Source of the DNA: Candidatus Berkelbacteria bacterium
Lineage (GTDB): Bacteria > Patescibacteriota > UBA1384 > UBA12157
Length of the DNA stretch: 64,000 bases
Direction: 5' to 3'
Assembly (NCBI GenBank): GCA_037127955.1
Contig: JBAXXI010000002.1
Location: forward strand, 8,377 to 72,376
The notes under the pieces were generated by a model. It saw only the letters and a list, made by a program, of their open reading frames with translations, did not search any database and had not been told where the DNA came from. The translations under genes and the position numbers were made by a program. Shown one piece after another: positions 1,914-63,505 of the stretch (position 1 is the stretch's first letter; the number at the start of each line of letters is the position of its first letter).

Positions 1914-3689
1914 TTATATTTCGATGATCACCGGAATGATCATTGGTCGGCGCTCAGTTTCAGTAAACAAAAATTCACCTAATTCCTGACGCAAAGCTTT
2001 CTTGATAAAATCCCAGTTTGCCGGGTATTTTTCATTATGCTTATTAAAGGTTTTCTTGATTTCCTGGCGAGCCTTGTAAACCAAGTCTTCTCGTTCACGC
2101 ATATAAATAAACCCGCGCGAAATAATATCTGGACTAGTAATAGTTTTACCAGTTTCATGGTCAACCGTCATAATAATGACAAAAATACCATCTTTAGCCA
2201 TGGCTTGGCGGTCACGCAAGACAATATTGCCCACGTCTCCCACACCTAAACCGTCGACTAAAACATAAGAAGCGTCAACTTTTTGGTTTGAAATACGGGC
2301 ACCTTTTTCATCGATTTCGATCACTTGACCATCTTCAATAGTAAAGGTTTTTTCTTCTGGAATACCCAATTCTTGAGCTAAACGAGCGTGTAAAACCAAG
2401 TGACGAAACTCACCATGAATTGGCAAAAAGTACTCTGGTTTTACATTGGCAATCACCAACTTCAACTCATCACGTTTAGCGTGACCCGAGGAGTGAACTT
2501 TTTCTCGTTCTGAACCATAAAACACGTTTGAACCAAGTCGGTACAAATTATTGACGGTATCAGAGTAAGTGCGTTCATTACCAGGGATAGCACCAGCTGA
2601 GATAACCACTGTATCGCCTTTTTTGATTTTGATTTGGCGATGTTCGCCAGTCGACATACGGACCAAGGCTGAATATTCTTCACCTTGTGAACCGGTACAA
2701 AGAATAACTAATTGATTATCAGGAATCTTATCTGCGCCACGAATATCAACTAATATTCCTTGTGGCACCTTTAAATAGCCTAAATTCATAGCAATATTGA
2801 TCGCCTTTTCCATACTTCGACCAGCAATCGCCACCTTGCGGTGGTACTTCTGAGCCGAATTAATCACACCTTGAATACGATCAAGAGCGGAAGCAAACGA
2901 AGTCACAATCATACGGCCTTTGGCTTTACCAAATATACCTGCAATTGTATCGTGAACCACGCTTTCTGCGATTGGATTACTTTTAATTTCAACGTTAGTC
3001 GACTCAAGTAGTAATAATTTAACCCCACGAGCCGAAAATTCATTCAATTTATTTAGAATTTTTTGTGATTCTAATTTGTTTGGATCAAGCTTAAAGTCAG
3101 CAATATGAATAATTAAGCCTTCTGGAGTATCGATAGCCAAACCCACATCGTCCAAAAACGAGTGAGAAAATGGGATAAATTCGATTTTGAAAACACCTAA
3201 CTGAATCTTGTCGCCAGCTGTAATCAAACGGATTTGAGGTTTGAGTTCCATTTCTTCCATTTTTGATTCAATAAAACCAGCGGTGAGCTTGGTCGCATAA
3301 ATCGGGCATTGTAATTTTGGCCAAATGTAAGCAATAGCGCCAATATGATCTTCGTGTCCATGAGTAAAGACAATACCGCGAATCTTGGATTTACGTTCTT
3401 CAAGGTAAGCCACGTTTGGAATGATAAAATCGATGCCAAGCATTTCGGCTCGAGGAAACATGATACCGCAGTCAACGATTAAAATATCGTCGCCATACTC
3501 ATAAATTTGCATGTTTTTACCGATTTCGCCGTTTCCACCCATTGGGATAATTTTTAATTTTTTCGCCTCAGGCGCTTTGAAAGTTGCCAAAGGTTGGTTA
3601 CCGGTTTGTTTAGCTGGCCCATTGTATATCGGTCTGATATTAGGGTTAGCGGCCGGACGAGGTTGCTCGTAAGATTGTTTGTAAGCCAT
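1914..3689 (-). CDS. rnj: ribonuclease J (beta-CASP metallo-beta-lactamase RNase)
   Basis: KIIPMGGNGEIGKNM...; HGHEDHIGA (HxHxDH) motif; about 590 aa. This is classic RNase J architecture. Confidence 0.93.
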   Translation of the reverse strand: MAYKQSYEQPRPAANPNIRPIYNGPAKQTGNQPLATFKAPEAKKLKIIPMGGNGEIGKNMQIYEYGDDILIVDCGIMFPRAEMLGIDFIIPNVAYLEERKSKIRGIVFTHGHEDHIGAIAYIWPKLQCPIYATKLTAGFIESKMEEMELKPQIRLITAGDKIQLGVFKIEFIPFSHSFLDDVGLAIDTPEGLIIHIADFKLDPNKLESQKILNKLNEFSARGVKLLLLESTNVEIKSNPIAESVVHDTIAGIFGKAKGRMIVTSFASALDRIQGVINSAQKYHRKVAIAGRSMEKAINIAMNLGYLKVPQGILVDIRGADKIPDNQLVILCTGSQGEEYSALVRMSTGEHRQIKIKKGDTVVISAGAIPGNERTYSDTVNNLYRLGSNVFYGSEREKVHSSGHAKRDELKLVIANVKPEYFLPIHGEFRHLVLHARLAQELGIPEEKTFTIEDGQVIEIDEKGARISNQKVDASYVLVDGLGVGDVGNIVLRDRQAMAKDGIFVIIMTVDHETGKTITSPDIISRGFIYMREREDLVYKARQEIKKTFNKHNEKYPANWDFIKKALRQELGEFLFTETERRPMIIPVIIEI

Positions 3690-3726
3690 AGTGATGACTT
3701 TCTAGTTAAATTCTAAATATAGAACT

Positions 3727-4284
3727 TTATTGATTAATTTGAGATAAAATTTCTGGAATTTTTTTAAAATCTTCCTTCATTGCTTCGCGGACCGAAAGCT
3801 GGTGTGTAGCGGCCGCTGGCTGATGCATAATCAGATAAACCTGGCCGGCTTTTTGATAAGCCTTGCCGTGAGCATCTGAAACAGATTTTAATTGTGGGAA
3901 AAACACTTGCATCGAGTGCTTACCCAAAGTGACGATTAATTTTGGTTTAATAGTTCTTATCTGACTAATTAAATAACTATTCGTACAAATTCTGACCTCT
4001 TCTTCAAGAGGATCGCGATCGTGCGGCGGACGACACTTAACTACATTTGTAATAAAAACGTCTTCTCGCTTTAAATTGATTGAAGCCAGTAACTCATTTA
4101 AAAATTCGCCAGCTTCACCAACAAAGGGTCTGCCTGCCCGATCTTCCGGTTCACCCGGACCTTCGCCAATAAAAAGAATCTCGGCAGTGGGACTACCTTC
4201 ACCAGGAGTGGCGTTAATTCTTCCCCTATAAAGAGGACATTTTTTGCAAGATTGAATATCTTGCCCAATCGAATCTAGATCCAT
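3727..4284 (-). CDS. uracil-DNA glycosylase, family 4
   Basis: CKKCPLY...GEGPGEPEDRAGRPFVGEAGEFLNELL motifs are characteristic of family-4 UDG. Confidence 0.85.
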   Translation of the reverse strand: MDLDSIGQDIQSCKKCPLYRGRINATPGEGSPTAEILFIGEGPGEPEDRAGRPFVGEAGEFLNELLASINLKREDVFITNVVKCRPPHDRDPLEEEVRICTNSYLISQIRTIKPKLIVTLGKHSMQVFFPQLKSVSDAHGKAYQKAGQVYLIMHQPAAATHQLSVREAMKEDFKKIPEILSQINQ

Positions 4285-4875: not shown

Positions 4876-6984
4876 TTAATGGTCTTCGTTCATAGCATCT
4901 TTGATGCTGAGTGAGACGCGGCCTTTTTCCTTGTCCACTTCGACGACTTTGACCTTGACGATATCGCCGACTTTAACCTTGTCGGAAACTTTCTCAATTC
5001 GCTCATTAGCAATTTGAGAAATATGAACCATACCGTCTTTATTTGGTAAAATCTGAACAATGGCGCCAATTTCATTACCGCGCATGCGGTCTTTCAAGAT
5101 TTGAACGACTGGACCTTCGAAAATCTCACCGACTTTTGGTTCACGCATGGAACCCGTAATAATCGACTCGGCTTTGGCAGCCATAGCTGAATCAGTTGAA
5201 CTGATCATAACTAAACCGTCGTCTTCAATATCGATGGAAATTAATTCACCACCACCACAGTCTTCGATGATTTTACGAATATTTTTACCACCTGGCCCGA
5301 TTAATTCACCAATCTTATCGGCATCGATTCTGAGCGATGTGATACGAGGAGCATAAGCCGAAAGTTCAGCTCGTGGCTCAGTGATGACTTCATTGATCTT
5401 ACCTAAGATAAAATTGATACCGTCGCGAGCTTGAAAAGTAGCTTCGGAAAGCATGTTCATTTCAACACCCTTGAGTTTGGTATCCATCTGGCAAGCCGTA
5501 ATACCATCTTTGGTACCAGTTAATTTATAATCCATATCGCCAGCAAAATCTTCCAAACCTTGAATATCGGTTAAAACTTTGTATTTATCGCCCAAAGTCA
5601 TCAGACCCATGGCAATACCAGCCACTGGAGTTTTAATCGGCACACCAGCGTCCATCAAAGCCAAGGTTGAACCGCAAGTCGAAGCCATTGAGCTTGAACC
5701 GTTGGAAGCCAAAACTTCGGATACAACGCGGATAGTATATGGGAAATCTTCTTTGCTTGGAATAACAGCCACCAAAGCGCGTTCTGCCAAGGCGCCGTGA
5801 CCAATTTCTCGACGAGAAGTACCACGAATGGTTTTAACTTCACCGGTTGAATATGGTGGGAAATTATAGTGATGCATGTAACGCTTGGTTCCCTCTTCTT
5901 CCATGGTTTCAATAGTCTGTTCTTCACCAGGAGCGCCAAGAGTCACAATTGACATAACCTGGGTCTGACCACGAGTGAACAAACCTGTTCCATGGGTTCG
6001 TGGCAGTAAACCAACTTCAATATCGATTGGGCGAATTTCGTCTAGCTTTCGGCCGTCAGGGCGAATACCCTTTTCGACAATAGCGTGACGGACTTCTTTT
6101 TCGAGTAAATCCGACAAAGTATTTTTCAGTTCTGATTGTTTGTAGTTACCCTCAAAAGTCTTCAAAACATCGGCTTCAAAAGAAGCAACTTGTTCATCGC
6201 GTTTAGCTTTATCCATCTCTGTCATAACGCTAGCCAATTTATCGCCAAGGTGTTTTTTAACATCGGCAATAATAGCGGCTTCACCTGGATCAGCCACGGT
6301 GTGCTTGGTTTTAGAAATTAAAGCTTTTTGGACTTCGATACCTGGTTGAAGTTCTTTCAAACCAAATTCAACGGCGGCCATAAAGTCTTTTTCAGACACT
6401 TCTTCAGCACCAGCTTCAATCATCATAACGCGTTCCGAAGTTCCAGCAACAGTTAAATCAAGGGTAGATTTTTCCATTTCGGCCATGGAAGGATTGGTAA
6501 TAAATTTACCGTCAACCAAACCAACACGAACAGCCGAAACTGGTCCTTCGAAAGGAGCTGGAGTTTGACTAAGTGCAGCCGAGGCGGCAATAATACCTAA
6601 AATATCTGGGTCATTTTCACCGTCAAACGAAAGAACAGTGATAATCACCTGAACATCGTTTCGGTAATTTTTTGGAAACAAAGGACGAATCGGACGATCA
6701 ATCAAACGGCAAGTCAAAATGGCTCGGTCTGAAGGTCGACCTTCACGTTTAATAAAGCGGGAACCGGAAATTTTTCCAGCCGCATATAATCTTTCCTCAT
6801 AATCCACCATGAGTGGAAAATATTCTGCATCATCTTTAGCTTTTTCGGAAACAACCGCAGTCGCTAAAACAACTGTGTCACCGCAACGAACGGTGACGGA
6901 ACCAGAGGCTAATCGAGCGAGTTTACCGGTTTCGATAGTAAGTTCTTTACCACCAATGACGGTCTTAAACACATCGGATTTCAT
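4876..6984 (-). CDS. pnp: polynucleotide phosphorylase (polyribonucleotide nucleotidyltransferase)
   Basis: Two RNase PH domains followed by KH and a C-terminal S1 domain (…KVKVVEVDKEKGRVSLSIK). Start set to MKSDVFKTVIGGKEL...; the track ORF starts 26 codons further upstream. Confidence 0.95.
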   Translation of the reverse strand: MKSDVFKTVIGGKELTIETGKLARLASGSVTVRCGDTVVLATAVVSEKAKDDAEYFPLMVDYEERLYAAGKISGSRFIKREGRPSDRAILTCRLIDRPIRPLFPKNYRNDVQVIITVLSFDGENDPDILGIIAASAALSQTPAPFEGPVSAVRVGLVDGKFITNPSMAEMEKSTLDLTVAGTSERVMMIEAGAEEVSEKDFMAAVEFGLKELQPGIEVQKALISKTKHTVADPGEAAIIADVKKHLGDKLASVMTEMDKAKRDEQVASFEADVLKTFEGNYKQSELKNTLSDLLEKEVRHAIVEKGIRPDGRKLDEIRPIDIEVGLLPRTHGTGLFTRGQTQVMSIVTLGAPGEEQTIETMEEEGTKRYMHHYNFPPYSTGEVKTIRGTSRREIGHGALAERALVAVIPSKEDFPYTIRVVSEVLASNGSSSMASTCGSTLALMDAGVPIKTPVAGIAMGLMTLGDKYKVLTDIQGLEDFAGDMDYKLTGTKDGITACQMDTKLKGVEMNMLSEATFQARDGINFILGKINEVITEPRAELSAYAPRITSLRIDADKIGELIGPGGKNIRKIIEDCGGGELISIDIEDDGLVMISSTDSAMAAKAESIITGSMREPKVGEIFEGPVVQILKDRMRGNEIGAIVQILPNKDGMVHISQIANERIEKVSDKVKVGDIVKVKVVEVDKEKGRVSLSIKDAMNEDH

Positions 6985-7069
6985 GTTACCTTTCTGGCAT
7001 GAGTACGTAGAACACCTAAAGGAGCACAAATTTTTATGCGTCTTTACCTGCCCTACGTCCATGCAATTA

Positions 7070-7180
7070 TTTTATTAATTCCGAAATCCGAATTCTAAAT
7101 CTCAAATAAAATATCAAACTGTTAAATTTCCAATTGGGAATTCTGATTTAATGATTTTATTCGTCATTCGTCATTCGAAC
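7070..7180. mobile_element. MITE-like repeat copy A (ORF-less) with about 17-bp terminal inverted repeats AAATCCGAAATCCGAAT / ATTCGGATTTCGGATTT
   Basis: CCGAAATCCGAATTCTAAAT…AATTGGGAATT…TTATTCGTCATTCG…TTCGGATTTT. Shares both ends and the internal AATTGGRAATTT…TTTATTCG block with the copies at 27335, 47222 and 63408. Confidence 0.7.
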
Positions 7181-7195
7181 TTCGGATTTTTTAAT

Positions 7196-7453
7196 TTACT
7201 TTTTTAAACCTAAATCTTTAATAAGTTTTTCGTACTTTTTTGTTTCGTTTTTCTTGAGATAATTCAAAAGACGGCGGCGTTTTCCAACCATCATCAAAAG
7301 TCCGCGGCGTGAATCTGAATCTTTAGCGTGCTTTTTCAAATGTTTGGCTAATTCAGCGATTTTCTCTGTTAAAAGAGCGACTTGAACATCGGTTGAACCA
7401 GTGTCATTTTTGTGTGTTTGGTACTTTTTGACCAAATCTTGTTTTTCTGCCAT
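7196..7453 (-). CDS. rpsO: 30S ribosomal protein S15
   Basis: 85 aa, full-length S15-like sequence. Lies downstream of pnp in the usual rpsO-pnp order (both on the minus strand). Confidence 0.93.
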
Positions 7454-7614
7454 GTTTTCTCCTGTTCGTTATACTTCAGCCATGATTTACCCCGAGCTTG
7501 TCGAGGGGCCAAGACATAACCTGCCCTCAATATTATTGGGGCGATTAATTAATATGGATTAATTGTACTACATTTTCACCTATTTGACAATAGTCTTGAC
7601 AAAAGCTTGATTTT

Positions 7615-7632
7615 GAGAGAGAGAGAGAGAGT
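7615..7632. repeat. (GA)9 dinucleotide microsatellite in the rpsO / 7708-gene intergenic region
   Basis: GAGAGAGAGAGAGAGAGA seen directly. Confidence 0.8.
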
Positions 7633-7707
7633 AAATTTGAATTGGAAGGATTTTCCTTCTAATACAAATAATTTATCGTTCATAGCGGTAACAAAAAGGA
7701 GAAAACT

Positions 7708-10111: not shown

Positions 10112-10411
10112 ATGCCAATTACCAAATCTGCGAAGAAATCATTAAAAGTTTCTCGCGCCAAACAAGCTCAAAATTACATCAAAACTGTTGCTTTAGAAAA
10201 AGCTATTCGTAAAGCCGATGTTAAAACCGTTAGCGAAGCTATTTCTCTAATCGATAAGGGTGCTAAAACTGGTTTAATGCACAAAAATAAAGCAGCCAGA
10301 CTCAAAAGCCAATTAACTAAGAAATTTGGTACACCAAAAGTCGAAGCTAAACCAGTAGTTAAAACTGAAGCTAAAGCTAAGACAGTCAAAAAAGCGGCTG
10401 CTAAGAAATAA
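10112..10411 (+). CDS. rpsT: 30S ribosomal protein S20 with Lys-rich C-terminal extension
   Basis: KSAKKSLK… and GLMHKNKAARLK motifs match S20. Confidence 0.85.
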   Translation: MPITKSAKKSLKVSRAKQAQNYIKTVALEKAIRKADVKTVSEAISLIDKGAKTGLMHKNKAARLKSQLTKKFGTPKVEAKPVVKTEAKAKTVKKAAAKK

Positions 10412-10417
10412 TTCAGT

Positions 10418-10512
10418 ATAAAGTTAAAAGTCCAAAGTTAAAAGTTGCTTGGAATTACTATAAATATGATTTTTTCCATCTACTTTAAACCTTAAACTTT
10501 AAACTTTTAACT
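10418..10512. repeat. heptamer-tandem palindromic element (AAGTTTA/AAGTTAA type) in rpsT-lepB spacer
   Basis: Left arm AAGTTAAAAGTCCAAAGTTAAAAGTTG. AT-rich loop. Right arm ACTTTAAACCTTAAACTTTAAACTTTTAACT is its approximate reverse complement. Confidence 0.7.
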
Positions 10513-10527
10513 GTTTGCTGGAGGGGT

Positions 10528-17089: not shown

Positions 17090-17154
17090 GTTTTGATTGT
17101 AACATAAAATTCATTTTTAAAAGAAATTCTACAACAAGATATAACGCTTATACC

Positions 17155-17182
17155 TTGACAAAAGTCTTTTTTTGTGCTATAC
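17155..17182 (+). promoter_or_regulatory. sigma70-type promoter TTGACAAAAGTC…TATACT
   Basis: TTGACA, 16-17 bp, TATACT. Upstream of the lipoprotein gene. Confidence 0.55.
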
Positions 17183-17273
17183 TATTTAGTTACAAGATTA
17201 GCTATGTCTACTTGTGACCGCCGTGGATTTTCCCGGCAATTGTCTCCCGCTTAGCGGGAAAGGAACCTTAACA

Positions 17274-22465: not shown

Positions 22466-22549
22466 AGCAATAATCCTTACTATTAAAGCTTAATACAACT
22501 TGATTATAACAAATTTTTCAGGTAAAATGTAGTGGATGAAAATTAAATA

Positions 22550-22582
22550 AGTTTAAAGTTGAAGGTAAAAAGTTTAAAGAAC
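22550..22582. repeat. half-element of AAGTTTA-type heptamer repeat immediately upstream of tsaD start
   Basis: AAGTTTAAAGTTGAAGGTAAAAAGTTTAAAGAAC. No clear matching right arm. Confidence 0.4.
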
Positions 22583-23770
22583 ATGGAAAAAAACAATATT
22601 AAAATACTGGCTATCGAGACTAGTTGTGACGAAACCGCCGCCGCTGTTGTTGAATCTAAAAATGGCGAAGTTAAAATATTGTCAAACATTGTTAATAGCC
22701 AGATTGATCTTCATAAAGTTTTTGGCGGTGTTTTTCCAGAAATTGCCTCTAAGACTCATGTTGAAAATATCATTCCAGTGATCGAAGAATCACTGGATAA
22801 ATCCGAAATCAGAATGTCAAAATCCGAAAAATTGAATGACATAGATGTAATTGCTGTAACTAGCGGACCAGGTTTGATTGGTTCACTTTTAGTGGGCACA
22901 AACACGGCTAAAACCCTGGCTTTTACCAAAAGCAAGCCGATTTTACCGATTAATCATTGGCTAGGTCACATATACTCCACTTTCAGTGGAGAATTTCCAG
23001 TTTCCAGTTTCCAGTTTCCAAATAAATTATCTAATGAAGAAAAATCCAAAACTGAAAACTGTGAACTGAAAACTGAGAACTTGCCCCAATTCCCTCTTCT
23101 CGCTTTAATTGTTTCAGGTGGCCACACCGGTTTAGTGATTATGAAGAGCCACACCGAGTACGAAACTATCGGCCAAACCCTCGATGATGCCGCCGGCGAA
23201 GCTTTTGACAAGGTGGCCAAACTGCTCGAACTTGGCTACCCAGGTGGACCAGCGATTTCAGCCGCCGCTGAAAAGTTCACAGTTTACAGTTCACAGTTTA
23301 CATATAAAATAATTCCAAATATTAAATTTCCGCGGCCCATGATACATTCAGGGGACTTTAATTTTAGTTTTTCCGGACTTAAAACATCGGTACTGAATAA
23401 GGTTAGAGAACTTGCTCAAACATACACTTTAGATGAAATTAAAAATCAAATTGCTTACGAATTTCAACAAGCCATTATCGATACTTTAATTACTAAAACT
23501 TTAGAAGCTGCCAATGAATACAAAATCAAATCAATTTGTCTGTGCGGTGGCGTTTCGGCTAATAAGGAACTCCGAGACCAGTTGGCTTCCGCACTTGAGA
23601 ACTGGAAATTGGAAACTGGAAACTCTGAATTATCTCTTTTTGTTCCCCCGATGCACTTGACTGGCGACAACGCTGCCATGATCGGTATCGCCGCCGCTTA
23701 CCAACTCGCCAACGGTGTCGAACCAACGACTTTTGATCAGGTTAACGCGAACTCAAATTTAAAGTTATAA
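22583..23770 (+). CDS. tsaD: tRNA N6-adenosine threonylcarbamoyltransferase TsaD (Kae1/YgjD), carrying three in-frame repeat-derived insertions
   Basis: ILAIETSCDETAAAV, SGPGLIGSLLVG, HWLGHIYS, VSGGHTGL, DDAAGEAFDK and GGVSANKELR motifs. The protein is about 60 aa longer than typical TsaD. The extra segments are encoded by heptamer-repeat elements. Confidence 0.9.
   Translation: MEKNNIKILAIETSCDETAAAVVESKNGEVKILSNIVNSQIDLHKVFGGVFPEIASKTHVENIIPVIEESLDKSEIRMSKSEKLNDIDVIAVTSGPGLIGSLLVGTNTAKTLAFTKSKPILPINHWLGHIYSTFSGEFPVSSFQFPNKLSNEEKSKTENCELKTENLPQFPLLALIVSGGHTGLVIMKSHTEYETIGQTLDDAAGEAFDKVAKLLELGYPGGPAISAAAEKFTVYSSQFTYKIIPNIKFPRPMIHSGDFNFSFSGLKTSVLNKVRELAQTYTLDEIKNQIAYEFQQAIIDTLITKTLEAANEYKIKSICLCGGVSANKELRDQLASALENWKLETGNSELSLFVPPMHLTGDNAAMIGIAAAYQLANGVEPTTFDQVNANSNLKL
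22994..23080. repeat. heptamer-tandem palindromic element (GTTTCCA type) inserted in frame inside tsaD
   Basis: TTTCCAGTTTCCAGTTTCCAGTTTCCA-AATAAATTATCTAATGAAGAAAAATCC-AAAACTGAAAACTGTGAACTGAAAACTGAGAAC. 87 bp. Encodes FPVSSFQFPNKLSNEEKSKTENCELKTEN, which typical TsaD lacks. Confidence 0.75.
23275..23303. repeat. partial GTTCACA-type heptamer repeat inside tsaD (in frame)
   Basis: GTTCACAGTTTACAGTTCACAGTTTACA encodes …FTVYSSQFTY…, an 11-aa insertion relative to the E. coli TsaD alignment I did by eye. Confidence 0.55.
23596..23626. repeat. partial GAGAACT/GGAAACT-type heptamer repeat inside tsaD (in frame)
   Basis: GAGAACTGGAAATTGGAAACTGGAAACTCTG encodes …ENWKLETGNSE…. Confidence 0.55.
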
Positions 23771-25215: not shown

Positions 25216-27336
25216 ATGAAGGAACTAGCAAAAAACTACAATCCGAAAGAAACTGAAGATAAAATTTACGCGCTTTGGGAAAAAGCCGAGGCTTTTAAAC
25301 CTGTTATTGATAATCCGTCAGCTGATGGACAAAAACCTTTTGTAGTAGTTATTCCGCCACCGAATGTCACTGGCTCCCTTCATATGGGCCATGCTCTCAA
25401 TAATACGATTCAAGATATATTAATCCGCCGTTCGCGCATGCGCGGCGTGCCAACTTTATGGATCCCTGGCACTGATCATGCTGGTATCGCCACTCAAAAT
25501 GTGGTGGAGAAAAAATTAGCCAAAGAAGGCACTTCTCGTCACGAATTAGGTCGTGAAGAATTTACCAAAGAAATTTGGACCTGGGTTGACCAATACGGCA
25601 ACACCATTATCAATCAGTTAAAGAGTATGGGTTGTTCTTGCGACTGGTCGCGTCAGCGTTTTACCATGGACGAGGGTTACGCTGAAGCCGTCAAAGCCAC
25701 CTTTATTCGTTACTATGAAAAAGGTTGGATTTACCGCGGTGAACGCGTGGTCAACTGGTGTACTCGCTGCCAAACATCGCTTTCAGATATCGAGGTTGAA
25801 TACAAAGAAGAAAAAGGTAAATTATACTGGATTAAATATGGGCCTTTCACTTTAGCCACCACCAGACCAGAAACTAAACTGGGTGACACGGCCGTTGCAG
25901 TTCACCCAGACGACAAGAGATATAAAGATATGGTTGGCAAAACATATACGATTAAAGGCGTAAATGGTGATTTTGATGTGATTGTTATTGCTGATAGATA
26001 TGTTGACCCAAATTTTGGTACTGGCGCCGTAAAAGTAACCCCAGCTCACGATTTCTCTGATTATGAAGCATCTCTCAGACACAATGTGCCGATGAAACAA
26101 ATTATCGATAAATACGGTAAAATGATGGACAACTGCGGTAAATACGCTGGCATGAAGACCGCTGAAGCTCGCGAAGCTATTGTCGAAGATATGCAAAAAA
26201 TGGGCTTAATTGACCATATCGATGAAGATTACATCCATAATGTCGGAACCTGTTATCGTTGTGGTAAAATCATCGAGCCACAACCAAGTAAACAATGGTT
26301 TGTCAAAATGGACGAACTAGCTAAACCGGCTATCGAAGCGGTTAAGAGTGGTGCTATCAAATTTACCCCAGAGCGCTGGAGTAAAGTGTATTTAGATTGG
26401 ATGGAAAACCTGCGCGACTGGTGTATTTCTCGTCAAATCTGGTGGGGCCACCAAATCCCAGCCTGGGAAAAAGGCGACGAAATTTATGTCGGTGATAATC
26501 CGCCAGAAGGTTTTACCAGGTCGGAAGATGTTTTAGATACTTGGTTTAGCTCCGCCCTTTGGCCATTTGCCACCCTTGGCTGGCCTAGCAAAACCGAAGA
26601 TTTAAAGCATTTCTACCCTACCAGTGTGCTTTCAACAGCCCGCGATATCCTCTATCTTTGGGTTGCCCGCATGATTTTCTCTGGGTACGAATTTACTGGC
26701 GAAAAACCATTTTCCGAAGTTTATATTCACCCAACCGTTTTCAATAAAGAAGGTAAACGCATGTCCAAATCACTTGGTACCGGCGTTGATCCGCTACTTT
26801 TAATTGACCAGTACGGCGCCGACGCCATGCGTTTCGGTTTAAGTTATATTAATACCGGTGTCCAAGATTTGAAGTTCGACGAGGAAGCGATCAAAGCTGG
26901 TGGTAAATTTGCCAATAAACTCTGGAATATCTCTCGTTTTCTTACCTGGAAATTAGAAAACGAAAATCCAAAATCAGAAATCAAAATTACAAATGAAACA
27001 CCAGAACCTAAATCCGAAGCCGACAAAATCATATTAACTAAATTAAACGAAGTTATTTCTTTAGTCGATAAAGACTTAGATGAGTTCAAATTTGGCCAAG
27101 CCGCTCACGAACTCTACGATTTTGTTTGGCACGATTTAGCCGATGTCTATATCGAAGAAAGTAAAAAAGAACTAAATTTACCAGTTTTGCAGCACATTAT
27201 TACCTCTTCGATTAAACTTCTACACCCAATTATGCCTTTTGTAACTGAAGAAATCTGGCAAAACTTGTACGAAAACAAAATAGTTGATGAAAAATTATTG
27301 ATTAAAGCCAAATGGCCAAATGCTAAAAGCGTTTAA
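25216..27336 (+). CDS. valS: valine--tRNA ligase (short form lacking C-terminal coiled-coil)
   Basis: PPPNVTGSLHMGHAL (HIGH) and KMSKSLGTGVDP (KMSKS) motifs; editing-domain sequence present; 706 aa. Confidence 0.93.
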   Translation: MKELAKNYNPKETEDKIYALWEKAEAFKPVIDNPSADGQKPFVVVIPPPNVTGSLHMGHALNNTIQDILIRRSRMRGVPTLWIPGTDHAGIATQNVVEKKLAKEGTSRHELGREEFTKEIWTWVDQYGNTIINQLKSMGCSCDWSRQRFTMDEGYAEAVKATFIRYYEKGWIYRGERVVNWCTRCQTSLSDIEVEYKEEKGKLYWIKYGPFTLATTRPETKLGDTAVAVHPDDKRYKDMVGKTYTIKGVNGDFDVIVIADRYVDPNFGTGAVKVTPAHDFSDYEASLRHNVPMKQIIDKYGKMMDNCGKYAGMKTAEAREAIVEDMQKMGLIDHIDEDYIHNVGTCYRCGKIIEPQPSKQWFVKMDELAKPAIEAVKSGAIKFTPERWSKVYLDWMENLRDWCISRQIWWGHQIPAWEKGDEIYVGDNPPEGFTRSEDVLDTWFSSALWPFATLGWPSKTEDLKHFYPTSVLSTARDILYLWVARMIFSGYEFTGEKPFSEVYIHPTVFNKEGKRMSKSLGTGVDPLLLIDQYGADAMRFGLSYINTGVQDLKFDEEAIKAGGKFANKLWNISRFLTWKLENENPKSEIKITNETPEPKSEADKIILTKLNEVISLVDKDLDEFKFGQAAHELYDFVWHDLADVYIEESKKELNLPVLQHIITSSIKLLHPIMPFVTEEIWQNLYENKIVDEKLLIKAKWPNAKSV

Positions 27337-27795
27337 ATCCGAAATCCGAATTCTAAATTTCAAATAAAAGGCGAAAATGTCAAATGATGAAACCAAATTT
27401 GACTTAGAAGAAAGAACCGCTAAATTCGGTGAGGATGTTATAAATTTCGTTAAAACGATACATTTAAACGAAATCAATCGCCCATTGATCAGTCAATTAA
27501 TCAGATCTGCAACAAGCGTAGGCGCCAATTACTGTGAAGCAGATTGCGCAGAAACAAAAAAGGATTTCGAGCATAAGCTTGGAATATGTCGTAAAGAATC
27601 AAAAGAAACCAAACACTGGTTGAGAATGATGGCGACAGCCCAACCAGATTTAAAAGAAAATCTACGATCAATATGGAAAGAGTCCAACGAATTAAATTTA
27701 ATCTTCTCTTCAATAATTCGTAAATCTAGAAATAAATTGTAGAATTGGAAATTTAATATTTTATTCGACATTCGAGTTTCGTCATTCTGATTTAT
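27335..27795. mobile_element. Long copy B of the TIR repeat, carrying the four-helix-bundle (Avd/IVS-protein-like) gene
   Basis: Left end AAATCCGAAATCCGAATTCTAAATTTCAAATAAAA overlaps the valS stop codon. Right end AATTGGAAATTTAATATTTTATTCGACATTCGAGTTTCGTCATTCTGATTT. The ORF 27377..27742 lies between them. Confidence 0.7.
27377..27742 (+). CDS. four-helix-bundle protein (23S rRNA intervening-sequence protein / Avd-like family)
   Basis: LISQLIRSATSVGANYCEA and KKDFEHKLGICRKESKETKHWLRMM match the family signature; 121 aa. Located inside a TIR-bounded repeat. Confidence 0.8.
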   Translation: MSNDETKFDLEERTAKFGEDVINFVKTIHLNEINRPLISQLIRSATSVGANYCEADCAETKKDFEHKLGICRKESKETKHWLRMMATAQPDLKENLRSIWKESNELNLIFSSIIRKSRNKL

Positions 27796-36223: not shown

Positions 36224-36259
36224 AGACCTCCTTATCTACCTTTTTATTGTAGCTGATAC

Positions 36260-36288
36260 TTGACAAAAGTCAAAAAATGTGGTATACT
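36260..36288. promoter_or_regulatory. divergent promoter region with palindromic -35 (TTGACAAAAGTCAA)
   Basis: Plus strand: TTGACA-17-TATACT upstream of the 36414 gene. The palindrome gives TTGACT on the minus strand, followed by TACAAT toward 35876..36223. Confidence 0.55.
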
Positions 36289-36413
36289 ACTTGGTTAATC
36301 GATCTTTGACAATTTAATATATATCACCTTTGTTTTCCGGGCCCAGCCCGTTTTAGCTTATAGCACCAGACGGGCAGGTATATGGCTCGACAAAAATTTA
36401 GGGGGATACTGAC

Positions 36414-38204: not shown

Positions 38205-38275
38205 GGAGAATCGAGACCCTGCGAAAGCGGGGTCTTTTCTTTGCTCAAAATTTCCCATTTTAACCATATAGACTC

Positions 38276-38304
38276 TTGACATTTAGCCAAATTTATGCTA
38301 TAAT
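38276..38304 (+). promoter_or_regulatory. sigma70-type promoter TTGACA-17-TATAAT
   Basis: Perfect consensus hexamers upstream of ORF 38365. Confidence 0.6.
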
Positions 38305-38364
38305 ATATAGTTATCTTTGATAACCTCACCTCGGTGAGATTTTAACAAAAGGAGGGCCCTAAAA

Positions 38365-40278: not shown

Positions 40279-41430
40279 TTATTTCATCGCTTTCTTAAGC
40301 TCTTCCACCTTATCTGTCTTTTCCCAAGTCAGGTTTAATTCTGTTCTACCAAAATGCCCATAAGCGGCTAGTTTTTGGTATACTGGTTTACGTAAATCTA
40401 GAGCCTCGATAATCATGCCTGGGCGTAAATCAAAAACTTTATTGACAGCTTCGGCAATCTTATCATCTTCAAACTTACCGGTACTAAAGGTATCAACTCG
40501 AACTGACATAGGCTCAGCTCGACCAATCGCATAAGCAATTTGCACTTCGGCGCGTTCAGCGAGCCCGGCAGCCACAATATTTTTGGCAACCCAACGGGCG
40601 GCATAACTACCAGATCGGTCAACCTTACTTGGATCTTTACCAGAGAAAGCACCGCCACCGTGGCGAGCATAACCGCCATAAGTATCGACGATAATTTTGC
40701 GACCAGTTAAACCAGTGTCGCCTTGAGGCCCACCAATCACGAAACGACCAGTAGTATTAACATAGAATTTAGTTTTACTGTCCAAATATTTCTCTGGAAC
40801 AACTTTTTTAATCACTAATTCGATAATTTCTTTTTGCAACTCTTTTTGTTTAATATTTTCATCGTGCTGAGCCGCGATTAAAACTGATTCAACTCTGACC
40901 GGTTTGTTACCATCGTACTCCACTGTGACCTGAGTCTTTCCATCTGGTCGAAGACCTTTGATAATCCCTTTTTTCCTAACTTCAGCTAAACGCGCAGCTA
41001 ATTTATGAGCTAAAACGATTGGTAAAGGCATAAGTTCCTTGGTTTCGGAACAGGCATAACCAAACATCAAACCTTGATCGCCGGCGCCAAGTTTCTCCAT
41101 ATTTTCCGCATCAACACCGCGAGCAATATCTACCGATTGACCAGTAATAGCCACATTGACGCCGCTAGTTTGCCAGTGGAAACCATATTCTGAGTCTGTA
41201 TAACCAATTTCTTTAATTTTGTTGCGAACAATCTTTTGAACATCAACATAAGTGTTAGTGGTAATTTCACCAGCAACCAAACAAAAACCATTAGTCAAAA
41301 AGGTTTCGCAAGCCACCCTAGCTTGAGGATCGTCAGTTAAAATTGCATCTAAAACCGCATCGGAAATTTGGTCAGCCATTTTGTCTGGGTGACCCTCGGT
41401 CACTGATTCGGAAGTAAAAAACTTTCGCAT
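40279..41430 (-). CDS. metK: S-adenosylmethionine synthetase
   Basis: [29 protein letters not shown] and DTYGG motifs. Confidence 0.97.
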
Positions 41431-41444
41431 TTTGTCCTTTCATT

Positions 41445-41580
41445 TACAAAAAAATCACCTTTTAAGGTGATGTATATTTTTACATTTTTCCCTAAAGGGT
41501 CGGAATTAGCACCCAACTTAAAGGGTTGCTGGTGGATCAACGGGCCGAATCCCTAACCACACTCTGAATATATTTTAGTT
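41445..41580 (-). promoter_or_regulatory. SAM-I (S-box) riboswitch in the metK leader, with intrinsic terminator as expression platform
   Basis: Minus-strand leader contains AGGGAUUCGGCCCGUUGAUCCACCAGCAACC … GGUGCUAAUUCCGACCC, matching the SAM-I core (GAGGGA-YGGCCCGAUGA…GGCAACC…GUGCYAAUUCC). This is followed by UCACCUUAAAAGGUGA and a U-run just before the metK ATG. Confidence 0.7.
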
Positions 41581-43855: not shown

Positions 43856-43858
43856 AAT

Positions 43859-43940
43859 AGTTTCCAGTTTCCAGTTCACAGTTTCCAATTAAATAAAAAA
43901 TTGAGAACTAAATGAGAACTGAAAATTGAGAACTGAGAAC
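43859..43940. repeat. heptamer-tandem palindromic element (GTTTCCA type) between atpF and atpH
   Basis: GTTTCCAGTTTCCAGTTCACAGTTTCCA-ATTAAATAAAAAATT-GAGAACTAAATGAGAACTGAAAATTGAGAACTGAGAAC. Confidence 0.75.
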
Positions 43941-43947
43941 CTAAATT

Positions 43948-44331
43948 ATGAAGATTTCTGCAAAAATTTACGCTCAAACCTTAATCCAGTCAGCCACAGA
44001 AGATAATTTGAAAAAATTAGCTAAAAGTTTTTGGTACAAATTACAGAAAAATAAACAGTACAAAGATATGAGTAAGGTTTTAGAAGCTATTGATGAAGAA
44101 TCGGCAAGACTTGATAATAAAATTTTAGCCAAAATTTATTCAAAAAATGAAATTTCCCAAACAGAGAAACAAGCCATAAACGAAAAACTCAAAAATAAAT
44201 TCAAAAAAGAAATAATTTTGCAAAATATTATTGGCAAAAATATCACCGGTATTATCGTTAAAGTTGAAGATAAAATTATTGATTTAAGTTTAGAAGGTAA
44301 ACTCGATAAACTCAAAAGAGTTTTAAATTAG
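43948..44331 (+). CDS. atpH: F0F1 ATP synthase subunit delta (short form)
   Basis: C-terminal …GIIVKVEDKIIDLSLEGKLDKLKRVL matches the delta/OSCP C-terminus. Operon position supports the call. Confidence 0.7.
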   Translation: MKISAKIYAQTLIQSATEDNLKKLAKSFWYKLQKNKQYKDMSKVLEAIDEESARLDNKILAKIYSKNEISQTEKQAINEKLKNKFKKEIILQNIIGKNITGIIVKVEDKIIDLSLEGKLDKLKRVLN

Positions 44332-44420
44332 TTTCCAGTAATCAGTTCCCAGTTCACAGTTAATTTTTAAAATTTAATAAATTGAGAATTAATTGAAAAT
44401 TGGAAATTGAAAACTGAAAA
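44331..44420. repeat. heptamer-tandem palindromic element (GTTTCCA type) between atpH and atpA
   Basis: GTTTCCAGTAATCAGTTCCCAGTTCACAGTT-AATTTTTAAAATTTAATAAATT-GAGAATTAATTGAAAATTGGAAATTGAAAACTGAAAA. Confidence 0.7.
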
Positions 44421-44433
44421 TTTAGGAGAAAAT

Positions 44434-45954: not shown

Positions 45955-45978
45955 ACACTGGCTACGATTTCAGATAAA

Positions 45979-46224
45979 TTATCCCCTTGATTCAACGCAA
46001 ACCTTAAATGGTTTAGCGGCTTCGATAAATTCTGAATGAAGTTGTTCGGATATCGGTGTACCTTCTGGCACTATGACCATAATTTCCATAGTTGCCTGTA
46101 ACACTTTTAAGTGATTCAAAGGAATTTTACTCTGAATCCGAACATCCGAAACGCGTCTGACCGAATCTTTAAGATCAGATGTCATTTCAGTCCAAGGAAT
46201 AAAAGTATCATTCTGATTATGCAT
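45979..46224 (-). CDS. small hypothetical protein (81 aa) encoded antisense between atpA and atpG
   Basis: ORF with strong RBS AAGGGGGTG 6 nt upstream of ATG. No family recognised. Confidence 0.35.
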   Translation of the reverse strand: MHNQNDTFIPWTEMTSDLKDSVRRVSDVRIQSKIPLNHLKVLQATMEIMVIVPEGTPISEQLHSEFIEAAKPFKVCVESRG

Positions 46225-46283
46225 TAGACACCCCCTTTATTACATAGTTTATATCATAAAAATATTAATTAGTCAAGAGAAAT

Positions 46284-47221: not shown

Positions 47222-47323
47222 AAAATCCGAAATCAGAATTCTAAATGACAAATAAAATTCACGATTAATAAATTTTAAAATTGGACATTTTATTCGAAAT
47301 TCGAATTTCGTCATTCGGATTTA
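47222..47323. mobile_element. MITE-like repeat copy C (ORF-less) between atpG and atpD
   Basis: AAAATCCGAAATCAGAATTCTAAATGACAAATAAAATT…AATTGGACATTTTATTCGAAATTCGAATTTCGTCATTCGGATTT. Confidence 0.7.
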
Positions 47324-48757: not shown

Positions 48758-48945
48758 TGACAAATCCTAATATTATAGAATACTTTTTAACTTTCTTATT
48801 TTTGGCTTCTTTAGTAGGTACAATTTTTGGATTTATTAAAAAAATAAAATGGCTAAAAATAACTGGTATTAGTGTCTTAATTCTTTTCTTGTTTTATATC
48901 GGTTTTATTAGCTGGATAGCTTTTCAAATAAGTAGTTGGGATTAA
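48757..48945 (+). CDS. small 2-TM membrane protein (62 aa) inserted between atpD and atpC
   Basis: ATG overlaps the atpD stop (TAATG). Two hydrophobic helices. Confidence 0.35.
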
Positions 48946-48949
48946 TTAA

Positions 48950-49416: not shown

Positions 49417-49460
49417 TGCATAGTACGCAAATTTAAATATTGTGATATAATTGATACAGT

Positions 49461-49558
49461 CTAAAGTTTAAAGATAAAAGTTGAAAGTTCATGGAATTAA
49501 TTATTTATATTAATGTTTTTCATATTACTTTAAACCTTTAACTTTATACTTTATACTA
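49461..49558. repeat. heptamer-tandem palindromic element (AAGTTTA type) upstream of PrgI-like gene
   Basis: CTAAAGTTTAAAGATAAAAGTTGAAAGTT - loop - ACTTTAAACCTTTAACTTTATACTTTATAC. Confidence 0.7.
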
Positions 49559-49588
49559 ACTTGGAGGAGGGATACTATTCAGTTTCAA

Positions 49589-63366: not shown

Positions 63367-63407
63367 AATACAGATCTAAAATCATGATGCAGATTTAGTA
63401 ATCATAA

Positions 63408-63505
63408 TGTCGAATAACAAAATCCGAATGTCGAACAAAATACTAAATTAATAAATCTCCAATTAGACGTTTTATTCGTCATTTGAAATTCGGATTTCGG
63501 ATTTA
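63408..63505. mobile_element. MITE-like repeat copy D (ORF-less) between dnaN and recF
   Basis: …AAAATCCGAATGTCGAACAAAATACTAAATTAATAAATCTCCAATTAGACGTTTTATTCGTCATTTGAAATTCGGATTTCGGATTT. Right TIR is perfect. Confidence 0.7.

Follow-up and report, generated by a model that had tools for sequence, protein, structure and literature searches.

A four-helix-bundle gene between inverted heptamer arrays downstream of valS

We analysed a stretch of 64,000 nucleotides from a Candidatus Berkelbacteria bacterium (contig JBAXXI010000002.1; this whole 64-kb stretch is called the window below), in which a short gene for a predicted four-helix-bundle protein separates valS from a downstream gene encoding a tetratricopeptide repeat (TPR) protein. 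The gene lies between two inverted arrays of tandem heptamers, and three other loci in the window carry such arrays without an open reading frame (ORF). The four copies are designated c1 to c4, and together with a half-array of the same type they have the following layout.

27335-27369 (+): left arm of c2, five tandem heptamers, the first overlapping the valS stop codon by 2 nt; repeat families D1 and D7
27377-27742 (+): four-helix-bundle gene (23S rRNA intervening sequence [IVS] protein, also S23p or Avd-like; here IVP), 121 aa, assigned by hidden Markov model (HMM) and by fold
27743-27758 (+): AATTGGAAATTTAATA block, directly 5' of the right arm of c2, recognized in the sequence
27759-27793 (+): right arm of c2, TTTTATT CGACATT CGAGTTT CGTCATT CTGATTT; repeat families D2 and D3
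27335-27793 (+): whole ORF-bearing copy c2, at the valS-TPR junction
7077-7189 (-): ORF-less copy c1, 5+5 heptamers, rpsO-pnp spacer
47223-47322 (+): ORF-less copy c3, atpG-atpD spacer
63407-63504 (-): ORF-less copy c4, dnaN-recF spacer; inverted pairs I1 and I7
22798-22831 (+): half-array of the same heptamer type (AAATCCG AAATCAG AATGTCA AAATCCG), inside tsaD; repeat family D7

The arms of all four copies consist of 5+5 inverted tandem heptamers. In c2 the left arm, which begins within the valS stop codon (TAA, 27334-27336), reads AAATCCG AAATCCG AATTCTA AATTTCA AATAAAA, with the complement type on the opposite side. The IVP gene has no strong Shine-Dalgarno sequence and is oriented like valS upstream and the TPR gene downstream. 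Each copy occupies a spacer between co-directional genes; c1, for example, is flanked by rpsO (7196-7453, -) and the polynucleotide phosphorylase gene (4876-7062, -). The half-array in tsaD is translated as KSEIRMSKSE, and the ortholog on a related Berkelbacteria contig (L085) has an indel at that place.

The 17-mer AAATCCGAAATCCGAAT had 14 matches in the window at three mismatches or fewer, compared with 0.67 expected, and none of 100 shuffles reached 14. It is exact only at 27335 (+) and at 63488-63504 (-), the remaining ends being 1-3 bases off. Repeat finding grouped the same four loci (direct families D1-D3 and D7, inverted pairs I1 and I4-I8). A first-pass annotation of this DNA had claimed that four loci share their ends and an internal block and that only the copy adjoining valS has the ORF; computational alignment agrees on both points, with refined coordinates (7077-7189 for c1, not 7070-7180), and places ORF-bearing and ORF-less copies in one family. 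In transcribed orientation, c1 to c4 can be aligned over both arms and over an inner AATTGG(A/C/G)(A/C)ATTT...TTTTATTCG block, of which AATTGGAAATTT...TTTTATTCG is common to the four, and the ORF's final ~10 nt persist in c3 (AATAAATTTTAA compared with AATAAATTGTAG). The short copies thus appear to derive from the long form by internal deletion. As had also been claimed, the element encodes no transposase: the long copy codes for the four-helix-bundle protein only.

Some properties initially ascribed to the family did not hold. Its ends are not classical terminal inverted repeats (TIRs) but inverted tandem heptamer arrays, conserved across phyla in sequence as well as in pairing, and the flanks of c1 to c4 share no direct repeat that could be a target-site duplication. 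No rRNA or tRNA gene was found in the window. An Rfam scan of the window detected a riboswitch described below and no family covering the hairpins, and a promoter and terminator scan of the element gave nothing above chance. The element was identical in four assemblies examined for population variation. An attempt to orient the ORF-less hairpins by their C/G content was dropped, since a palindrome is identical on both strands; orientation claims are limited to ORF-bearing copies, the AATTGG loop block giving a weak hint for c2 to c4.

The encoded protein belongs to the S23p/IVS family

The 121-aa protein matched PF05635 with 51.9 bits (cutoff 33.8, E 9.5e-14), TIGR02436 with 77.6 bits (cutoff 24, E 7.5e-22) and the PDB entry 2RLD with E 3e-16. 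Its AlphaFold monomer model (pLDDT 91.9) has four helices at residues 10-25, 35-56, 61-88 and 90-118, and in Foldseek searches it aligned with TM scores of 0.80-0.89 to 2RLD, 0.77-0.83 to 2GSC (Xcc0516) and ~0.7-0.8 to Avd (4DWL). 2RLD and 2GSC contain five chains each. Avd of the Bordetella phage diversity-generating retroelement (DGR) is among the closest solved folds, including Avd within the DGR ribonucleoprotein 8UB7. An identical 121-aa protein is encoded on contig CAZJOX010000001.1 of the Candidatus Berkelbacteria metagenome-assembled genome GCA_964547745.1. The protein had no match in PADLOC or PHROGs, and no relative of its clade was found on viral contigs.

Residues C53, C57, H66, C71 and H80 (NYCEADC...H...GIC...H) are invariant or nearly so in this clade and could form a metal site. 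Such a Cys/His set is not known from other members of the four-helix-bundle family.

The first-pass annotation had raised a retro-processed origin and a connection with DGRs, and such an element would be copied and reinserted by an Avd-like protein acting with a reverse transcriptase. The sole point in favour of this is the protein's structural kinship with Avd. However, the Pfam-annotated genes up to 10 kb to each side include no reverse transcriptase, the long ORFs of the window lack an R[FY]xDD motif, and no template/variable repeat pair was detected in the window. Moreover, the window contains a single PF05635-type (IVP) gene, and the neighbours of the 80 related loci are housekeeping genes, not reverse transcriptases. 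We regard a retro-processed or DGR-related origin as highly improbable.

The valS copy is old and under selection

On the related contig L085 the synteny FemAB-tsaD...valS-IVP-TPR is kept, and the cassette is present at the same junction. Between the window and L085, IVP is 82% identical and the valyl-tRNA synthetase 64-67% identical. The proportion of synonymous differences (pS) is 0.73-0.79 and thus saturated, and the proportion of non-synonymous differences (pN) is lowest for IVP (0.131, compared with 0.223 for valS and 0.203 for tsaD). Despite the saturation of synonymous sites, the arms of c2 are ~85% conserved (left arm, 83-86%). Because the junction is shared, pS saturated, pN low and the arms conserved, the valS copy is, on this sequence comparison, an old, fixed and vertically inherited one, whose protein and arms are both under purifying selection.

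Inverted heptamer arrays flank related genes in several phyla

Close homologues of the protein (53-76% identity) were collected from 80 loci in different species, 79 of which enter most counts. They come mostly from phyla of the Candidate Phyla Radiation (CPR), with some from Cloacimonadota, WOR-3, Stahlbacteria and Eisenbacteria. An ungapped hairpin scan, which was too strict and found only two hairpins in the window, was replaced by the pairing of period-7 arrays. Inverted heptamer arrays with the consensus AATTTCT flank homologues in 79 species and six plasmids belonging to several phyla. When the 120 nt upstream of the gene were aligned with the reverse complement of the 120 nt downstream, scores of 25-73 were obtained at nearly all 79 loci, compared with a mean of ~17 for shuffled flanks. 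The aligned flanks are tandem heptamers that end in AATAAA(A) immediately 5' of the ATG. Autocorrelation at lag 7 was 0.45 upstream and 0.48 downstream, with ~0.28 at other lags and 0.20-0.26 in the ORF interior or 1 kb away. AATTTCT itself was present in 55 of the 79 upstream flanks, and its complement in the same number (55/79) of downstream flanks.

Arm pairs from the same locus scored 39, compared with 30 for pairs from different loci (p 5e-10) and 18 for the direct-orientation control. Since same-locus arms match better than cross-locus arms, the arms combine a shared motif with locus-specific complementarity. Mismatches between the arms are concentrated at heptamer positions 4 (28%), 5 (33%) and 7 (19%), with 2-4% at positions 1, 2 and 6, which gives the conserved pattern A-A-T-n-n-C-t. 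The IVP gene has the orientation of its upstream neighbour at 74 of 77 loci and that of its downstream neighbour at 71 of 79 (p 1e-4 and 0.025 for a baseline of 0.81), and with median gaps of ~41 nt and ~60 nt to these neighbours, the spacers are filled by the arms. Near-identical cassettes were found in distant phyla, with ~70% protein identity.

The more distant homologues on plasmids of Nostoc, Planktothrix, Chlorohelix and Treponema have the same layout with different heptamers; in Bernardetia, the flanking repeats look direct, not inverted. A Nostoc flagelliforme plasmid carries AATTCAA x4 and TTTGAAT x4, an N. punctiforme plasmid AATTCGC x4 and GCGAATT x4, and a Planktothrix plasmid AATCCCC and AATCGTA units. 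We take these cyanobacterial units around PF05635 genes to be of the short tandemly repeated repetitive (STRR) type. A 9-nt unit (AATTCACCT) is confined to one protein clade (8/14, compared with 0/65 elsewhere, p 1e-7). Given this restriction, the protein and its repeat travel or co-evolve as a pair.

A metagenome scan with the arm pattern revealed AAATCCG-type arrays or hairpins in many unrelated organisms, an IVP gene following in 2 of 35, and recovered no other contig of the window's genome. These matches include an in-frame array in fmt and ORF-less hairpins in soil contigs; the latter lie in GC-rich DNA, so this hairpin type is not limited to AT-rich CPR genomes. ORF-less hairpins are also found near IVP genes in further species.

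Several variants of the layout were recorded. Tandem or nested arrangements of the cassette occur, with either another left-type arm or another IVP gene following directly, at L028, L033, L034 and L035 (just 3' of the IVP stop codon), L064 (3001-4274) and L070 (1203-3366). On ten GC-rich soil metagenome contigs (L094, L095, L097, L101, L103, L105, L110, L111, L113 and L125), ORF-less GAATGAC/AAATCCG hairpins directly follow the stop codon of a conserved ...DPMEALRYE terminus. The genes on either side of the soil-contig hairpins are presumably tandem permeases.

The first-pass annotation had linked the IVS-protein family to a defined inverted repeat, and this holds in the 79 species and six plasmids. 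The link is not wholly new, as one case is known, the 23S IVS of Coxiella burnetii (PMC4990558). Our literature search found that case alone and no general account of heptamer arms around PF05635 genes; the general pairing of these genes with inverted heptamer arrays across phyla appears to have no prior description. The annotation had also asked whether any copy lies inside 23S rDNA; there was none among the copies examined, and no rRNA was found in the 15 related loci that were scanned, one of which lies between tRNA genes. This cassette, from Paceibacterota (L030, 2672-3505), is situated inside a stable-RNA transcription unit, a situation nearer to that of the rRNA IVSs.

Gene-less hairpins are gained and lost

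The window contains a sister family of ORF-less hairpins with a different heptamer.

43856-43941 (+): TTTCCAG-type (AGTTTCC/TTTCCAG) hairpin, atpF-atpH spacer; repeat families D5 and D10
44324-44424 (+): second TTTCCAG-type hairpin, atpH-atpA spacer; fold -27.5 kcal/mol, z -4.8
22988-23081 (+): TTTCCAG-type hairpin in frame in tsaD; 27 aa (81 nt) by protein alignment, reading GEFPVSSFQFPNKLSNEEKSKTENCEL

The first of these folds with -20.8 kcal/mol (z -4.5), and both atp hairpins are strong on the transcribed strand, their stems having 6 bp and one mismatch per heptamer. The 27-aa insert in tsaD is missing from the L085 ortholog and splits the Pfam match of TsaD into two stretches. Conversely, valS of L085 contains at 7552-7634 an in-frame hairpin of 84 nt (28 aa; AATGACC AATGACC AATTTCC AATTTCC ... 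AGAAATT, read as MTNDQFPISNQNENNQNSNNLEIRNSDL) that is missing from valS of the window. At these tsaD and valS coding sites, only ambiguous heptamer-like microhomology, possibly a short duplication, is seen (GAAAT; CTGAAAATTT).

In the ATP synthase operon, the atpF-atpH, atpH-atpA and atpG-atpD spacers hold heptamer hairpins both in the window and in a relative with 76% identical AtpG (L127). At a given site the two genomes have different families, and within a genome one family is found repeatedly. In a second relative (L128, 69% identical) the spacers are empty, with 2 nt at atpF-atpH and 26 nt at atpG-atpD, the site of c3 (compare 3679-3778 and 6916-7024 in L127 with 3571-3572 and 6913-6938 in L128). 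Presence/absence differences were thus documented for sister-family copies and at the c3 site but for neither c1 nor c4; the c2 site is occupied in the window as well as in L085. When ORF-less copies were ranked among 79 loci for likeness to the IVP flanks of their own genome, they had ranks 1, 1, 6, 5, 5, 6 and 15, with one outlier; c3 and c4 each had rank 1.

Empty sites, different families in the same spacers and in-frame inserts in tsaD and valS show that the gene-less hairpins turn over, both in operon spacers and in frame inside genes. The initial idea of a mobile element seeding intergenic regions is supported in part, the hairpins being present in one relative and absent in another. 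It does not apply to recent movement of the ORF-bearing copy, which occupies the same valS-TPR junction in L085.

An explanation without mobility would be that the arrays, like cyanobacterial STRRs, originate and grow where they stand, through slippage of replication in AT-rich spacers, and are kept as host hairpins for mRNA stability, mRNA processing or translational coupling, the bundle gene being a domesticated RNA-binding regulator. Every copy of the family in the window is indeed in an intra-operon spacer, and c1, between rpsO and pnp, occupies the position at which an RNase III-cleaved hairpin regulates pnp in E. coli. The vertical inheritance of the valS copy and the purifying selection on its protein and arms also count in its favour, heptamer copy number differs among Coxiella strains, and a role in transcript stability or translational coupling was proposed for the 7-nt STRR hairpins between hupS and hupL (PMC2670836). 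However, variant heptamers and loop blocks follow a specific order that the four loci share, which in-place slippage would not generate repeatedly, and the remnant of the ORF 3' end in c3 indicates descent from the long form. In-frame insertions in essential genes are hard to square with regulation, and near-identical cassettes in distant phyla also weigh against an origin in place. We consider host hairpins of this kind an improbable explanation.

Two side observations concern these hairpins. In the window, tsaD (22583-23770) contains in-frame translated heptamer arrays at 22988-23081, 23268-23307, 23595-23634 and 22798-22831, and L085 tsaD has insertions of 7 aa and 39 aa at other array positions. 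A further hairpin family, AAAGTTT/AAACTTT, with a different unit pattern, is found at 10410-10520 (rpsT-lepB spacer), at 49455-49561 (in the leader, on the 5' side, of a PrgI-like type IV secretion operon) and at 22549-22581, where a half copy immediately precedes the tsaD start codon.

RNA pairing and possible protein recognition of the arms

The capacity of the arrays to form RNA stems differs between copies. The transcribed (-) strand of c1 folds with -35.1 kcal/mol (z -5.6), compared with -22.4 kcal/mol for the + strand, and good stems were obtained at many homologous loci, for example L005, L021 and L039.

The reading that we prefer, and hold to be slightly more likely than not, is that of an IVS-type cassette located outside rRNA, in which an S23p/IVP gene lies between inverted arrays of about five heptamers and which is accompanied by internal-deletion hairpin derivatives of ~100 nt. 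As its anatomy and the 79 loci show, the cassette has no promoter of its own and is transcribed in sense within the host operon, filling the spacer from the upstream stop codon to the downstream ribosome-binding site. In the transcript, the arrays would pair into a long, periodically mismatched stem, analogous to the 23S IVS stem that is cut by RNase III. By analogy with the IVSs of Coxiella, Leptospira and Salmonella, an RNase III cut would make the insertion tolerable, free the ORF RNA or a hairpin-capped mRNA end, and separate the flanking messages. The protein, presumed to form pentamers, would probably recognize the arrays both of its own element and of copies that lack the ORF, because the heptamer is conserved across phyla beyond the needs of pairing and because the unit type tracks the protein clade. 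The hairpin form is gained and lost over evolutionary time, in operon spacers and even in frame inside genes, by a mechanism that would need no transposase.

Several observations weigh against this cassette model. The c2 arms are complementary at ~25 of 35 positions, and the z value is 0.0 for the arms-only fold and -1.1 for the whole element. Among arm mismatches, G.U (59) and A.C (55) are similarly frequent and thus give no signal of pairing specific to RNA. Conservation of either arm between species exceeds the complementarity of the two arms, which is better explained by protein binding, possibly to DNA, than by a simple RNA stem. The window lacks an RNase III gene motif, and a hairpin that RNase III can cut would be harmful inside tsaD or valS mRNA. 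Finally, S23p of Coxiella is probably not made and is decaying (PMC4990558).

Equal G.U and A.C counts, poor pairing in c2, arm conservation, the A-A-T..C pattern and the co-variation of unit and clade together suggest that the heptamers are read by a protein, for which the encoded bundle, presumed to form pentamers, is the obvious candidate, as its relative Avd sits in an RNA-protein complex (8UB7).

An alternative would be a DNA element resembling a miniature inverted-repeat transposable element (MITE), at whose ends the arrays would offer multiple protein-binding sites on DNA, double- or single-stranded. The bundle protein, or an unlinked enzyme of the host or of an insertion sequence, would move long and short copies, and RNA pairing would be incidental. 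Such an element would account for dispersed homologous copies with a common heptamer order, for empty and filled orthologous sites, for in-frame insertions, and for the finding of different families in one spacer of two relatives alongside repeated copies of one family in a genome. The lack of excess of G.U over A.C, the conservation of the arms as sequence rather than as pairs, and the heptamer-like target with possible microhomology or short duplication at the two coding sites (GAAAT; CTGAAAATTT) also agree with it. However, no transposase or recombinase is present in the element or among annotated genes within 10 kb on either side, c1 to c4 have no consistent target-site duplication, and the protein is a 120-aa helical bundle without known catalytic fold. 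In addition, the ORF copy has remained at one site since before synonymous saturation, and a purely DNA-level element does not predict the strong sense-orientation bias in operons. We therefore view a MITE-like DNA transposon as unlikely, without dismissing it as readily as in-place host hairpins.

The cassette model may be extended to a wider proposition, which we hold only tentatively: PF05635 pentamers would be sequence-specific binders of tandem heptamers and, with the inverted arrays, would form a widespread class of selfish or domesticated cassettes free of transposase, whose ORF-less hairpins would have reached the spacers of operons, genes for stable RNAs and even coding sequences. If true, one mechanism would underlie 23S rRNA IVSs, the STRR repeats of cyanobacteria and the peptide inserts carried by housekeeping proteins of the CPR. 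The S23p/IVS family has thousands of members and solved structures but no known function, and heptamer repeats of STRR type have been unexplained since 1990. The locus described here and the cross-phylum survey make the PF05635 gene and the heptamer repeats one unit, with gene-less hairpin derivatives. Their pairing renders the function of both directly testable, and offers a possible explanation for some odd peptide insertions in CPR housekeeping proteins.

Other features of the window

A promoter-like box, CTTGACA-N17-TATACT/TATAAT, with conserved surroundings precedes three genes (17154-17192, 36259-36297 and 38275-38313). An S-adenosylmethionine (SAM) riboswitch (Rfam RF00162, 54.9 bits) is located at 41479-41574 (-), upstream of the gene at 40279-41430, which we take to be metK-like; L127 has a SAM riboswitch too. 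The atpA-atpG spacer (45955-46283, 329 nt) and the atpD-atpC spacer (48758-48949, 192 nt) are unusually long and may hold small unannotated ORFs; a relative carries a GIY-YIG gene between atpA and atpG.

Comparison with known systems

Avd of DGRs (4DWL, 8UB7) resembles the window protein in fold (TM ~0.7-0.8) and has relatives that are pentameric and part of an RNA-protein complex. Identity is only 13-15%, and the window element, unlike a DGR, has neither reverse transcriptase nor template/variable repeat pair.

The Correia/NEMIS, REP/BIME and ERIC sequences are inverted-repeat elements of ~100-150 nt co-transcribed with their neighbours, like the hairpins described here, and RNase III cleaves the Correia hairpins of Neisseria. 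True TIRs and a TA duplication are features of Correia elements, as RAYT transposases are of REPs; neither is seen at the window element. Rickettsia palindromic elements are short palindromic repeats located between genes and also in frame within essential genes, to which they contribute additional translated peptide segments. The window hairpins share both locations with them, but there is no sequence relation, and the Rickettsia elements are not known to have heptamer periodicity or an associated four-helix-bundle gene.

Cyanobacterial STRRs likewise consist of tandem 7-nt units and form hairpins in the spacers of operons; the host differs (CPR, Berkelbacteria), and so do the unit sequences. 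Units such as CCCCAAT were reportedly described by Mazel et al. in 1990, and we know of no description of STRRs as arms of a gene cassette. The 7-nt hairpins between hupS and hupL, also in an operon spacer, have long been known, their function being unexplained (PMC2670836).

The closest parallel is provided by the 23S IVSs with an S23p ORF in Coxiella burnetii and Leptospira (PMC4990558). In Coxiella, the inverted repeats at the ends make up a 28-bp stem, the S23p ORF is in sense with the rRNA, 2-3 tandem GACAGAT heptamers and a degenerate one, in strain-variable number, stand directly before the ATG, and RNase III cuts at the start of the first repeat (PMC4990558). An older idea, quoted by Warrier et al., is that the IVS ORF encodes a component of mobility (PMC4990558). 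In contrast with these IVSs, the window element lies between protein-coding genes and not in an rRNA helix, its protein is under strong purifying selection whereas that of Coxiella is decaying, and its arms are 5+5 heptamers with imperfect pairing, for which RNase III processing would be assumed by analogy. The two nevertheless share the protein family, an ORF in sense with a poor or absent Shine-Dalgarno sequence, heptamers before the ATG, terminal inverted repeats and the existence of ORF-less short forms, represented among the IVSs by those of Salmonella type.

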